The notes under the pieces were generated by a model. It saw nothing but the letters and a program-made list of their open reading frames with translations, ran no database searches and was not told the DNA's origin. A program made the translations under genes and the position numbers. Source: a virus (Duplodnaviria > Heunggongvirae > Uroviricota > Caudoviricetes). Taken from it: a stretch of 41,039 nucleotides of DNA. Location of the stretch: IMG/VR virus record IMGVR_UViG_648276644_000012, positions 1 through 41,039 of that record, one strand, 5' to 3'. Of this stretch, positions 1 through 6,227 are shown piece by piece. Numbering within the stretch: the first letter of the stretch is position 1; every line of letters starts with the position of its first letter.

Positions 1-1158
1 ATGCTCACCGTTAAGCAGATTGAAGCAGCAAAGCCGAAAGAAAAACCATACCGCCTACTCGATGGTAATGGCCTGTACCTTTATGTCCCTGTGTCAGGGA
101 AAAAGGTATGGCAGCTTCGCTACAAGATTGACGGTAAGGAGAAAATCCTGACCGTCGGAAAATATCCGCTTATGACTTTGCAAGAGGCAAGGGATAAAGC
201 ATGGACTGCGAGGAAAGACATCTCGGTTGGCATCGATCCGGTAAAGGCGAAAAAGGCTTCGTCTAACAACAATTCCTTTAGCGCCATTTACAAGGAATGG
301 TACGAGCACAAGAAGCAAGTCTGGTCAGTAGGCTATGCAAATGAACTTGCAAAAATGTTTGATGACGACATTTTACCCATCATCGGCGGTCTTGAAATTC
401 AGGATATTGAGCCGATGCAACTACTGGAAGTAATCCGCAGATTTGAAGATCGCGGTGCAATGGAGCGAGCAAATAAAGCCCGCAGAAGATGCGGCGAGGT
501 TTTCCGTTACGCTATTGTCACTGGTAGGGCTAAATATAACCCGGCACCTGACCTTGCTGACGCCATGAAGGGATACCGCAAGAAGAACTTCCCGTTTCTT
601 CCTGCAGACCAGATCCCTGCATTCAACAAAGCACTGGCAACATTTTCAGGGAGCATCGTATCGCTCATTGCGACTAAAGTTTTGCGCTACACAGCCCTAA
701 GAACGAAAGAGCTTCGCTCCATGCTATGGAAGAACGTCGATTTTGAAAACAGGATTATCACCATCGACGCCAGTGTGATGAAGGGTCGAAAAATTCATGT
801 GGTTCCTATGTCAGACCAGGTGATTGAACTTCTCACTACGCTAAGCTCAATCACTAAACCAGTGTCAGAGTTTGTTTTTGCCGGGCGCAACGATAAGAAG
901 AAGCCAATTTGCGAGAACGCTGTACTGCTTGTGATCAAACAAATCGGCTATGAAGGTCTGGAAAGCGGTCACGGATTCAGGCATGAATTCAGCACGATTA
1001 TGAACGAGCACGAATGGCCTGCTGACGCTATTGAAGTGCAACTGGCACATGCCAACGGCGGATCTGTGCGCGGGATTTACAACCACGCTCAGTATCTCGA
1101 TAAGCGCAGAGAAATGATGCAGTGGTGGGCGGATTGGCTTGATGAAAAGGTGAAGTGA
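1..1158 (+). CDS. intS: Tyrosine integrase, P4 family (IntS-like, 385 aa)
   Basis: N-terminal arm-binding type sequence MLTVKQIEAAKPKEKPYRLLDGNGLYLYVP; C-terminal catalytic motifs HGFRHEF and Y in IYNHAQYLDKRR; length equals E. coli KpLE1 IntS; symbol assigned from context and recollection. Confidence 0.85.
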   Translation: MLTVKQIEAAKPKEKPYRLLDGNGLYLYVPVSGKKVWQLRYKIDGKEKILTVGKYPLMTLQEARDKAWTARKDISVGIDPVKAKKASSNNNSFSAIYKEWYEHKKQVWSVGYANELAKMFDDDILPIIGGLEIQDIEPMQLLEVIRRFEDRGAMERANKARRRCGEVFRYAIVTGRAKYNPAPDLADAMKGYRKKNFPFLPADQIPAFNKALATFSGSIVSLIATKVLRYTALRTKELRSMLWKNVDFENRIITIDASVMKGRKIHVVPMSDQVIELLTTLSSITKPVSEFVFAGRNDKKKPICENAVLLVIKQIGYEGLESGHGFRHEFSTIMNEHEWPADAIEVQLAHANGGSVRGIYNHAQYLDKRREMMQWWADWLDEKVK

Positions 1159-1219: not shown

Positions 1220-1535
1220 CTAAGTTTTTCTCACATCACCGCACAATAATCAAACTAACCATAACACTCTTCGTTGATAATGACCTGACGGATATCATCA
1301 TGTACGTGACTGAGATTGGAGCAATAAGGCTCTTGTCGATTGACACACTATCTTCAACTAGTTCTGCTGCTGGAGATAGAAGCCCATAGTGCACTTACGA
1401 TAAAATACTGTGCGAGAACACAATATAATCATAGTAAAAATCAGATCAACTTCAAAACACGCTGCTTATCCATTGATCAACAGAATCATGCTGTTAAAAT
1501 TAATCCTATTACTACACTTAACTTAGGTATCTTTA

Positions 1536-2576: not shown

Positions 2577-2590
2577 CATATGACATGAAT

Positions 2591-2618
2591 CCCCAGCTTA
2601 GTTCTGGGGATATTTTCT
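2591..2618 (+). terminator. Rho-independent terminator after AT3 gene
   Basis: Hairpin CCCCAG-N7-CTGGGG followed by T-rich ATATTTTCT. Confidence 0.5.
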
Positions 2619-2741
2619 GGTTATATAATACAATCCGAACTTACACCGAGAGCAAAAATCAATTATATAAGCATACTGTATCATTCATATTACTTTTACG
2701 CTAGGCTCAAGTATCCAATGATCAATAACAGACAAAAAATA

Positions 2742-2757
2742 CTGTATGTGTATACAG
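2742..2757. promoter_or_regulatory. Candidate LexA (SOS) box CTGT-N8-ACAG
   Basis: taCTGTATGTGTATACAGag is a close match to the E. coli LexA consensus TACTGTATATATATACAGTA; sits ~150 bp upstream of the next ORF. Confidence 0.4.
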
Positions 2758-2905
2758 AGTCAGTGATATTTTTTCTGCTGCTCAATGATCATTTCCGATC
2801 TTCCCACTTCTAAATTTATCCTCATGATGTTATTATCATTAAATTTATTTTAGGGGTAGTCACATGAGATATATTGCATTGTTTTTCTTTGCTCTTTCAC
2901 TGTAG

Positions 2906-3184
2906 ATGAATTGGACAATAAAAATGATAAAGTATAGAGCTGGTATAGATGGTTTAAGAGCAGTCGCTGTTGTGATGTTTCACGCTTTCCCAAGCGCATT
3001 TTCTGGAGAGTTCAATGGGTTTGATTTATTTTTCATAATATCTAGCCTTTTAATTTCAAGTATTATTTTTAAAAATTTAAATAGCGGTAAATTTTCTTTT
3101 TCCGATTTTTACTTAAGAAGGATTAAGCGGATTTTTACACTCTTACTCAGATCATATATAAGATTAGATTGCAAGTCTAGTTAG
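2906..3184 (+). pseudogene. Truncated N-terminal fragment of an OafA-type AT3 acyltransferase
   Basis: 92-aa ORF with AGIDGLRAVAVVMFHAF...GFDLFFIIS...FKNLNSGKFSFSDFYLRRIKRI matching only the first ~2 TM helices of AT3 proteins, then stop; an SGNH ORF with TM anchor follows 85 bp later. Confidence 0.5.
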
Positions 3185-3268: not shown

Positions 3269-3964
3269 ATGAAGTCAAAACAAACAAATAGAAAGTCTCA
3301 AGCAAATAAATATTTGGCAATGCTGTTTATTCTGATTGCAATAGTTATTATAGTATTGTCTGTTCGTTCAATTAGAAATTATTTATCTCAAAAAAAAGTT
3401 AACGACTTTCAGGCTGTGATGCTAGATTTTAAAAAAATGAATGCTAATCAAGCTGACGGCGACATTGTGGTTTATGGCGACTCGCTCATACAAGGAATGT
3501 CACCATATGGGTTAAACTTTAAATATGTTAATATGGGGGTCGGAGGATACTCTATACATCAGATCCTAACTCTATCAGAAAATTATGGGGCGTCTGGATA
3601 TAAAGCTGCGATAATTGAAGGTGGAGTTAACGATGCGATGGGTGCGAAAACCGAAGAGGAAATATTTGATGATTATGACAAACTGCTTAAGAGTGTATCA
3701 AAGGTTGATAATATTTATGCATTAAAAGTTTTGCCAATCATAAGCGGGGCAAGAAAAGACGTAGACCATGTCAATTCAAGAATAAGCATGATTAACTCTA
3801 TTATTGATAGAACATGTAGTCGCATAGTTAACTGCAATATAATAGAAGTTCCTGCAGATTTTTTATCTGATAAAAAATCTGAATTGTACTTTGATGATGG
3901 AGTGCATTTAAATAAAAATGGCTATGCCGTTTGGATGAGAGAGATTAATAAACATGTGAAGTAA
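3269..3964 (+). CDS. Membrane-anchored SGNH/GDSL hydrolase (esterase/acetyltransferase partner domain)
   Basis: N-terminal TM helix LAMLFILIAIVIIVLSV; SGNH blocks VVYGDSLIQG (block I), GGVNDA (block III), DDGVHLNKNGY (block V); own SD AAGGA before ATG. Confidence 0.75.
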   Translation: MKSKQTNRKSQANKYLAMLFILIAIVIIVLSVRSIRNYLSQKKVNDFQAVMLDFKKMNANQADGDIVVYGDSLIQGMSPYGLNFKYVNMGVGGYSIHQILTLSENYGASGYKAAIIEGGVNDAMGAKTEEEIFDDYDKLLKSVSKVDNIYALKVLPIISGARKDVDHVNSRISMINSIIDRTCSRIVNCNIIEVPADFLSDKKSELYFDDGVHLNKNGYAVWMREINKHVK

Positions 3965-3989: not shown

Positions 3990-6227
3990 CTACCAGGAAG
4001 CATCAATGTAAAATATTGGTGAGGCTGTAGTAGATCCATTAATTGTTATCGACCCGGTTGATGCGCTTATTGTTGCCATCGCCATACCGTAAGATATTCC
4101 ATCAGCAGTGAACGGTACAGGGACATTTTTTGTTACTGTTGGTCTACACCACCTTGGCAGCGTTAGAACAGTATTACCATTCGCAAATGAAGTGGCTGCC
4201 AGTTTAATATTAATTGAATTGGCAGTTAAACTTGACGGTGCCTGTACTGTTACGTTTGTTCCAGCCCACCATTGAACAGCTGCTCTTGGCGTGTAATCAA
4301 CACGCGACCACCAGTCGATAATGGCAGAGCAGATAATTTCCGCATACAGACGATACCCTAACTGGCTTTGGTGAATGTCATCACGCAGAAGTGGGTCGTA
4401 TTGCGTATTGAAATACTCTGGATATGGGGCCGGGAGCTGGTGAGTTGTTGTTACACAAATGACGTTATTGCCATATTTCATCATCTGGCGTTTACCAGCT
4501 TCTCGCAACTCTGCGACACCGTCGTAGTTAGAAGATGGCTGGCCAGCCCCTCCAATAAATGACTGGCTATACCACATCCACGGCTCAACCCAAACAGGGA
4601 TACGACCAAGGCCATTGCAATATAAGACAAACTCATCTATCAATGACGCCATATAATCGCCGTTTTGGTTTGCCTGCCCTTCGTTAGTTCCGGCAACCAT
4701 AATAACGATGTAAGCATCACCCGGCCCCTGAGCCTTCAGGAGATCTAACTGTTGCCTCATTGTCTGTCCGGCAACTGCCTTGTTTACAATGCTATGTGAA
4801 CGGTGGCCGTTCGCTCCATCCATTAATTGCGGAATGTACGAGCTGAACGCGGAAATGAAATCCTCAGCTGTACTATCACCGTGGATAAGGATATTAAGTG
4901 GAGGCTTACCGTGCACGCCATTATCAGAGGTGTAGCTGCATAATCCAGTTACACGCGCAGAACCTCCAGATGCCGTGGTCAGTGCAACAAACCCAACTTC
5001 GTATACATCCCCTACATCAGCAGTATCAAAGGGCAAACGTATCCCAACGCCATTCATCGTTATCTGCGCCCAGTTTTTACCTTGCAGTGATACGCCAACG
5101 GTTGCTTTGCCCGGGGCGTACGACAGTAAACCTCCTGGCAGCGGGAATGGAGTTCCTTCTGCTACTGGACCACCAATTGGTTTCTGTCTATAAGACCACT
5201 GTGTAGCACCTGGTGCCCCATAGAACATCATCCAACCACCAGAGCATCGCAGAACAATCCCAACTTCTGAGGCGGCCTGAGATTCCATACGAATATGTGC
5301 AGAAATATGCTCTCCAATATCTATTGGTGCGAACAGGCCTGTTGTACGGTTAGTAGTTAAGGGGAAGATAGCTGCGCTATCTGAGGATATGGTGACTTCA
5401 CCTTCATAGAAGAACGTGTCACCATTTATGGAATAAACTTTACAATCTGACCATTCCACTCGCTTCATGCGAATAGGGTTTCGGTTGAGGATAGCCTGCT
5501 TAGCCAGGTAATCCACTTCCCCACCGGTTGCTTTAAAGTTCAGGTGCGTAAATTCAAACGTACCCTCCCCCTCGTACTGCAACGATTTAAACAGTGAGTA
5601 CAGATCACTGTCGAATCTCAGGGTGACATTTTTATCAATGATTACTTTACTGTTCGCAAGGAAAGAAGCGTTAGCAGCTGTAGACGGTACGGTGTACACC
5701 ATCTGATTTTTTGAATGATTAGAGAAGTAAACATACCCGTAGGTCGCAACACTATCGCGCCATGCCTGGACTACGTTAGAATTAACATAGCTTGGGATTT
5801 TTGTGATCGAATGCAAAACAAGGTCTTCCTGTGAGATAGCTCCATTTACCAGATTAACACCGCCTTGAGATGCAAGATCTTGCCTGAGTTGGTCAGGGTC
5901 ATACTTCAACACATTCGGAAAATAGAACTGCTGCGAACCATACGCATCATAAACAGCCATAGAATGCCCTTGCACAGTTACGAACTTGGCAATTTGTCCG
6001 TTATATACCGGATATCCAGCAGCGTTAATGATGATTGGTTGCGAAACAGGAACGTGAGAACCGTCTTCGTTCTCCACATAAACCTGAATCTGGTTTTCAG
6101 GATTTACCGGGTCAGTGTCAATTTTACCGATATAAATTTTTCCATTGGCAACCGCTTTAAAAGAACGCGCCATAGTGAAGAGTTGCGAAGGCATCGATAC
6201 GATCACATTGGCTGTAATGTCTGTCAT
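3990..6227 (-). CDS. gp9: Tailspike: P22 gp9-type N-terminal head-binding domain plus divergent receptor-binding region containing an SGNH esterase domain
   Basis: First ~115 aa [11 protein letters not shown]...NVLKYDPDQ match P22 tailspike N-terminus as recalled; aa ~443-640 carry SGNH blocks [30 protein letters not shown]. Confidence 0.85.

Follow-up and report, generated by a model that had tools for sequence, protein, structure and literature searches.

The genes that come closest to the locus described here belong to two groups, those of the SOS response and those of prophage-encoded surface modification. LexA ChIP studies in E. coli have reported orphan or "unconventional" LexA sites on the chromosome, for which a regulated gene is not evident. 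The umuD gene of Salmonella has its LexA box 15 nt from the ATG (PMC8072944, Table 1), and the humD gene of phage P1 is described as LexA-regulated (PMC9603915). A single LexA box can also be shared between two divergent genes, as is accepted for uvrA/ssb (PMC8072944). In the second group, prophage O-antigen morons such as Oac of Shigella phage Sf6 and the OafA/OafB-type AT3-SGNH enzymes resemble the locus described here in that AT3/SGNH genes lie between integrase and tailspike, at a tRNA site. O-acyltransferase B of Sf101 is another example of O-antigen acyl modification by a prophage (cited in PMC8787464). As to the control of such genes, the Kapi1 paper discusses RecA-dependent induction only (PMC8787464), and a literature search for LexA control of prophage AT3/SGNH cassettes found no report.

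The window analyzed here (the whole stretch of 41,039 nucleotides) is a P22-type prophage like HK620, CUS-3 and Kapi1. In E. coli PigCaeca_1, this prophage adjoins tRNA-Arg. A LexA-type box lies within a mosaic region (hereafter the island) bounded by the integrase and the tailspike (Table 1). The island carries both an AT3 domain (PF01757) and an SGNH/GDSL domain (PF13472), and its AT3/SGNH cassette is flanked by the integrase/att end on one side and by the tailspike on the other, in a P22-like prophage. In domain content as well as position, these genes fit O-antigen acylation cassettes, and a corresponding activity is putatively assigned to them. Unlike the Oac, OafA and OafB cassettes, the window has AT3 and SGNH on separate genes, amid the fragments of two further cassettes. 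The island was present in three of 5,426 complete E. coli genomes, with one additional, distant match in E. coli XJ55; a nucleotide-level search with the box region against phage and plasmid collections gave no match.

Table 1. Features of the integrase-tailspike island, in window coordinates
Feature	Coordinates	Strand	Remarks
Prophage integrase gene IntS	1..1158	+	Adjoins tRNA-Arg in the matching genome
humD pseudogene	~1231..1387	-	Start codon is the complement of 1385-1387; left boundary approximate
LexA box 1, decayed	1406..1425	.	TACTGTGCGAGAACACAATA; 9.2 bits; start codon of the humD relic 18 nt away
Promoter-like site of the AT3 gene	1473..1500	+	TTGATC, 16 nt, TAAAAT, with TG before the -10; starts 48 nt right of box 1
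Stand-alone AT3 acyltransferase gene, 346 aa	1536..2576	+	PF01757, E 2e-30
Intrinsic-terminator-like hairpin	2589..2611	+	3' of the AT3 gene, between it and the box region
LexA box 2	2740..2759	.	TACTGTATGTGTATACAGAG; strong match; partner gene now absent
Putative relic -35 hexamer TTGAGC of a leftward umuD/humD-type promoter	2780..2785	-	Read from the flank against 10 intact loci
Candidate proximal promoter of the SGNH family gene	2808..2836	+	TTCTAA (2808-2813), 17 nt, TATTAT (2831-2836); 8/12 matches
5' relic of a secreted SGNH/GDSL esterase gene, 13 codons then stop	2864..2905	+	MRYIALFFFALSL; homology to the XJ55 gene
N-terminal relic, 92 codons, of a second AT3 acyltransferase gene (OafA-like)	2906..3184	+	Acyl_transf_3
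Membrane-anchored SGNH/GDSL gene, 231 aa	3269..3964	+	Complete ORF, annotated in RefSeq
Phage tailspike gene, right border of the island	3990..6227	-

Between the box and the complete SGNH gene, two gene stubs (2864-2905 and 2906-3184) lie end to end, and the 2905/2906 junction is a recombination scar. The second stub matches Pfam Acyl_transf_3 with an E-value of 2e-4, under the curated cut-off. The initial annotation had placed the box about 150 bp upstream of truncated AT3/SGNH ORFs; the distance is right (148 nt from the end of the box to the ATG at 2906), and so is the truncation of the AT3 fragment, but the SGNH gene is complete. Elsewhere in the island, a perfect direct repeat of 14 nt, GATCGCACTAGCAA, occurs at 2486-2499 and 2558-2571, 72 nt apart, with one copy in the 3' end of the AT3 gene and the second immediately ahead of that gene's stop codon. 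This repeat may represent a small duplication or a recombination footprint.

The box itself is the 20-mer TACTGTATGTGTATACAGAG, with the core CTGTATGTGTATACAG at 2742-2757. This core is the only exact CTGT-N8-ACAG sequence in the 41-kb window, and six of its eight spacer bases are A or T, which bears out the near-consensus box with an AT-rich spacer that was noticed at this position in the initial annotation. A match to CTGT-N8-ACAG alone proves nothing, as it does not exceed chance: shuffled windows contained 0.48 such matches on average, and 41 of 100 shuffles contained at least one. We also scored the window with an approximate, symmetrised weight matrix derived from 24 published LexA operators of E. 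coli. The scoring, named in the initial annotation as a way to check the site, gave 18.7 bits for TACTGTATGTGTATACAGAG, inside the range of the training operators (12.7-26.1 bits), while the runner-up within the window reached 12.4 bits. A score of at least 18.7 bits was obtained in only four of 1000 dinucleotide-preserving shuffles of the window. A heterology-index-like score of the box was 6.2-8.4 (training sites, 0.8-10). As a positive control of the matrix, operators before umuD/humD-like genes at unrelated loci scored 21.7-27.1 bits. The 20-mer is identical across six near-identical copies of the island. Judged by its sequence, 2740-2759 is a good-quality LexA-type site, and LexA probably still binds it.

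To the right of the box, 104 nt form the leader of an SGNH esterase gene (ATG at 2864). Positions 2773-2899 of the window share 76% identity with the leader plus the initial 12 codons of the secreted SGNH esterase gene of E. coli XJ55, which lies in a lambdoid prophage and is intact there. XJ55 carries CTGTATGCATGCACAG 121 nt before the ATG of its SGNH gene, and the window carries its box 122 nt before the corresponding ATG, that is, in the same register. The right flank thus indicates that the box arrived attached to the 5' flank of an SGNH gene, since destroyed. The 13-codon stub that remains of this gene at 2864-2905 belongs to a different SGNH gene from the intact one at 3269-3964. Within the leader, a putative rightward promoter, which falls under the threshold of the consensus scan, starts 48 nt from the box and would be equivalent in position to the sites that the tool called in two relatives (loci L003 and L095). 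The relic leader also contains, 30 nt right of the box, a one-base difference at 2789, where the window has T and all six other island copies examined have G. In E. coli XJ55 (L002, 3664-4644), an IS5 element of the ISKpn26 family separates the AT3 gene from the orphan box/SGNH gene; this insertion is absent from the otherwise identical metagenomic contigs L013 and L014.

A sister prophage occupies the same tRNA-Arg site in E. coli SRY149 (L115), with integrase DNA 96% and tailspike-region DNA 92% identical to those of the window. There, the order is intS, a gene annotated as "HumD family translesion DNA polymerase" (minus strand), a LexA box, a fused AT3-SGNH gene and the tailspike, all intact. 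The SRY149 box, TACTGTATACACATACAGTG, scores 23.1 bits and lies 16 nt from the humD ATG. Window positions 1280-1411 are 74% identical to a stretch of SRY149 that takes in the 5' end of this humD gene, the leader and the box as far as its left half, and the humD pseudogene region of the window is homologous to the humD-box junction of SRY149 (L115, 2233-2658). The pseudogene carries a frameshift after codon 3 (MGF) and, relative to the intact SRY149 gene, an internal deletion of ~250 bp; the RefSeq annotation of the matching genome has no entry for it. On the other side of its decayed box, the promoter-like site of the AT3 gene has an equivalent in locus L004. The island therefore holds two fossils of the same promoter kind, of which 2740-2759 is the better preserved, and it demonstrably accumulates humD/box relics.

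The two prophages also share part of their SGNH genes. At the nucleotide level, the 3' 560 nt of the window gene (from 3404) share 80% identity with the part of the fused SRY149 gene (AT3-SGNH, 595 aa) that encodes its SGNH domain. Since SGNH is stand-alone in the window and fused to AT3 in SRY149, split and fused forms of the enzyme coexist at one prophage site. The 231-aa product is the counterpart of the C-terminal domain of the protein encoded by L115 2774-4561, and its N-terminal membrane anchor is different. A further observation concerns the boxes of the two prophages: the humD box of SRY149 has CTGTATACACATACAG as its core (L115, 2641-2656), and its exact reverse complement is the window core CTGTATGTGTATACAG (2742-2757, 16 nt). 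An origin of the window box as an inverted copy of the SRY149 box was rejected, as the flanks do not fit: AAAATACTGT lies on the left, in the same orientation, in both window boxes and in SRY149.

Homologues of the XJ55 SGNH protein (41-99% identity) were traced, together with their surroundings, to 14 further loci. A single-protein search of viral and genome contigs with the XJ55 SGNH protein gave no match; an alignment-based search gave further loci, and most of its 80 genome matches were remote planctomycete SGNH genes, which were left out. Every strong box (21.7-27.1 bits) found near an SGNH homologue, or near the leading AT3 gene of an AT3-SGNH pair, lies 5-20 nt upstream of a divergent start codon. 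These loci are L011/L012, L095, L096, L097, L098, L004, box 2 of L013/L002 (the XJ55 type) and L005. In all of them except L095, the divergent gene is a PHROG "UmuD-like protein" (phrog_3469 or phrog_811); in L095, the gene next to the box is an unnamed ORF of ~79 codons, and the UmuD-like gene lies directly behind it. The UmuD-like proteins of 128-132 aa match Pfam Peptidase_S24. A box at 5-20 nt from the start codon of such an UmuD-like (S24) gene was found in nine distinct relative loci, and is absent from the window. Most of the divergent UmuD-like genes start with MGFPSPA..., which resembles the starts of processed UmuD' and P1 HumD.

The elements around these boxes are arranged in a regular manner. 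As read from the flanks, the leftward promoter in most intact loci appears to consist of TTGAnn, a spacer of 17-19 nt and TACTGT, the -10 hexamer being made by the end of the box. This layout resembles that of the E. coli umuDC promoter. Like the umuDC operator and that of P1 humD, the relatives L004, L011, L095-L098 and L115 have a 20-bp box of the TACTGT-N8-ACAGTA type at a distance of a few to 20 nt before an UmuD-type start, where it overlaps the -10/+1 region. On the other side, the AT3 or SGNH genes have promoter-like sites whose -35 hexamer begins 37-49 nt beyond the box (called by the scan in L003, L095, L004 and for the AT3 gene of the window). Because the box of the relatives adjoins the start of an SOS gene, and the AT3/SGNH promoter-like sites are 37-49 nt off, the box belongs to the SOS gene by position. 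The distance from the box to the SGNH ATG is 93-122 nt in the window, the XJ55 type, L003, L011, L095 and L097; the SGNH homologues of L005, L006, L007, L008 and L015 have no box upstream. DNA-pattern scans for closer relatives of the leader found nothing but near-identical copies of either the island or the XJ55 type, the other metagenome matches being due to chance, and found no intermediate in which an intact umuD-like gene lies beside this exact leader.

UmuD/HumD-like and AT3/SGNH genes recur as divergent neighbours in L004, L011, L095-L098, L115 and L013. This pairing spans P22-like, lambdoid and contractile-tail prophages (the tail modules include tailspike, TipJ-type tail and baseplate J), and was seen in E. 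coli, Enterobacter, Citrobacter and uncultured viral contigs. The pair has the look of a two-gene moron unit that is mobile. In addition to umuD-umuC-like genes, some lambdoid prophages have a second UmuD-like gene, which is shorter (105 aa, phrog_3469) and without a match to Pfam S24, as in L002/L013 (2124-3075), L097 (1202-3425) and L005 (2291-4512), where each gene has its own strong LexA box. The 105-aa form may be one without the catalytic part of the S24 domain.

Boxes that have lost their partner gene differ from those that have kept it. The scores of boxes beside an intact gene (21.7-27.1 bits, n = 11 distinct) and of partner-lost boxes (9.2-19.4 bits, n = 5) do not overlap (Mann-Whitney p = 0.001, for loci that are not fully independent). 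The orphan scores are 18.7 and 9.2 bits in the window, 15.3 in the XJ55 type, 12.5 in L003 and 19.4 in L008-L010. In L003, ACAG is changed to ACAT, and in L008-L010, where the partner gene is stopped after 15 codons, CTGT is changed to CTGA. The three orphan boxes before SGNH genes are without the terminal TA (ACAGAG, ACAGTC and ACATGA versus ACAGTA), and the missing bases are the first two (T, A) of the leftward -10 hexamer TACTGT. In the window, the leftward elements would read TTGAGC, 20 nt to the box, and CTCTGT, versus 17-19 nt and TACTGT in most intact loci. A consensus promoter scan at the box found no promoter-like site on either strand. Searches by tblastn with nine UmuD-like or neighbouring proteins against the DNA left of the orphan boxes returned only noise, and no UmuD-like gene was found anywhere in the window. 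The box accordingly adjoins no promoter of a gene: there is no gene on its left, and the gene on its right ends after 13 codons. Unlike umuDC and humD, the locus has lost the gene, the TA of the -10 has become CT, the putative -35 relic is 20 nt away, and the operator alone survives. Descent from a umuD/humD-type promoter is indicated by the register of the box to the SGNH gene and by the second humD/box relic of the island. The orphan loci are linked to the intact ones by protein homology and position, rather than by nucleotide homology of the box flanks, and the promoter hexamers were read by eye or with a simple consensus scan.

We propose, with a probability of about 0.7, that the box at 2740-2759 is the vestigial operator of a lost phage umuD/humD-like gene and exerts no control over the moron. 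In the ancestral cassette, the umuD/humD-like gene would have stood back-to-back with an SGNH esterase gene. The box would have overlapped the -10/+1 region of a LexA-repressed, leftward promoter on the humD side, and the esterase gene would have been read from its own promoter, some 40-50 nt further right. Recombination would then have deleted the umuD-like gene up to the left edge of the box and, on the other side, cut the esterase gene after 13 codons. What may be left of the leftward promoter lacks the TA in its -10 hexamer, and no gene remains for it to transcribe. The center of the box would lie ~94 nt upstream of the likely rightward start, outside the usual zone of LexA repression, and a transcript from the rightward promoter would meet the 13-codon stub and then the AT3 stub before reaching the SGNH gene at 3269. 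With the leftward -10 and gene lost and the rightward start ~94 nt off, the box is most likely a regulatory fossil. The initial annotation had offered such an origin as its second choice, namely a relic of an SOS-regulated gene brought in with the cassette; the evidence favors this choice, and the layout of the relatives suggests that the gene was humD/umuD-like.

Several observations run counter to a mere relic. The orphan box still scores 18.7 bits, with all eight core bases intact. Leftward, the homology shared by the window, the XJ55 type and L003 goes exactly as far as the edge of the box, beyond which the three flanks are unrelated, and the box could have been kept with the SGNH leader by selection. 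The core is conserved at 23 of 24 positions, which at the observed divergence has a probability of roughly 0.16 under neutrality; this rough estimate decides nothing on selection. Moreover, the window and the XJ55 type both have the order box, AT3, box, SGNH, which looks almost designed.

These observations lead to the reading that headed the initial annotation, SOS control of the surface-modification moron. Here the box would be a working SOS operator through which LexA lowers rightward transcription into the SGNH gene at 3269-3964, either at a promoter that overlaps the box and escapes consensus recognition, or by standing in the way of read-through from the AT3 gene; DNA damage or prophage induction would then switch the esterase on. 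The strength of the site (18.7 bits, four of 1000 shuffles), its recurrence 93-122 nt before the SGNH ATG in six kinds of loci, and its retention in three orphan loci whose left flanks all differ are consistent with this reading, as is the SGNH gene at 3269, which has no scan-called plus-strand promoter and may depend on transcription that starts near 2840. A precedent also exists in uvrA/ssb (PMC8072944), to which the ancestral umuD-like/SGNH and humD/AT3 junctions are similar in having one box between divergent genes. Unlike uvrA/ssb, however, the AT3/SGNH promoter-like sites begin 37-49 nt beyond the box, the window box being centered ~94 nt upstream of the start, and sharing is unsupported by position; in all intact loci the position of the box suits the leftward gene, whose ATG is 5-20 nt off. 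Several SGNH homologues (L005, L006, L007, L008 and L015) do without any box, boxes without a partner are systematically weaker, the gene next to the window box is dead beyond its first 13 codons, and the terminator-like hairpin at 2589-2611 already limits read-through. We consider SOS control of the moron unlikely, and the vestigial operator is preferred. If such SOS control existed, surface remodelling would join the SOS regulon. A broader version, in which LexA boxes are kept upstream of prophage SGNH/AT3 genes because they gate them, so that O-antigen (de)acylation would be switched on by DNA damage or prophage induction, appears to us quite improbable. Were it correct, this switch could, for example, keep released virions from re-adsorbing to debris or to sister lysogens, and humD, the box and AT3/SGNH would be a co-regulated two-gene moron that moves among podo-, sipho- and myovirus-type prophages.

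Two other explanations fare still worse. The box might control an unannotated small gene, such as one for an SOS-induced hydrophobic peptide of the TisB/DinQ kind, the candidates being a 22-codon ORF at 2785-2853 (plus strand) and a 28-codon ORF at 2598-2684 (minus strand). Short ORFs do lie on both sides of the box, the product of 2785-2853 is partly hydrophobic, and a similar ORF of 20 codons can be read in the XJ55-type locus. Against this, both ORFs lack a Shine-Dalgarno sequence, and the promoter scan called no site for them. The 2785-2853 peptide is 55% identical in the window and the XJ55 type and the DNA 76%, as neutral drift would give, and this ORF is absent from L003 and L011. The ORF at 2598-2684 lies in DNA without a homologue in any locus. 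Both ORFs were rejected for their want of a ribosome-binding site, neutral-like divergence and lack of conservation in L003 or L011, and control of a small gene is very improbable. Slightly more remote still is a palindrome that matches by chance or is a structural element unrelated to LexA. The expectation of 0.48 CTGT-N8-ACAG matches per window and the AT-rich surroundings would allow for it, but the score of the full 20-mer is reached in just four of 1000 shuffles, and the box is in register with the boxes of homologous leaders. A hairpin or terminator at the box was likewise rejected, as RNA folding was no better than that of shuffles (z = -0.45).

The vestigial operator can be compared with the orphan LexA sites of the E. 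coli chromosome, which likewise are good sites off recognizable promoters; the origin of the window box, in addition, is traceable to a specific lost gene. Read as a fossil, the box cautions against deducing SOS control from nothing more than a good motif. The recurrent divergent pairing of UmuD/HumD-like and AT3/SGNH genes, which share one intergenic region in several enterobacterial genera, is the only point that is mildly new. As a whole, the region between integrase and tailspike can be read as a stack of recombination scars, namely a humD pseudogene and its decayed box, the orphan box, an SGNH stub and an AT3 stub, and this stack documents the swapping of morons in P22-like prophages.
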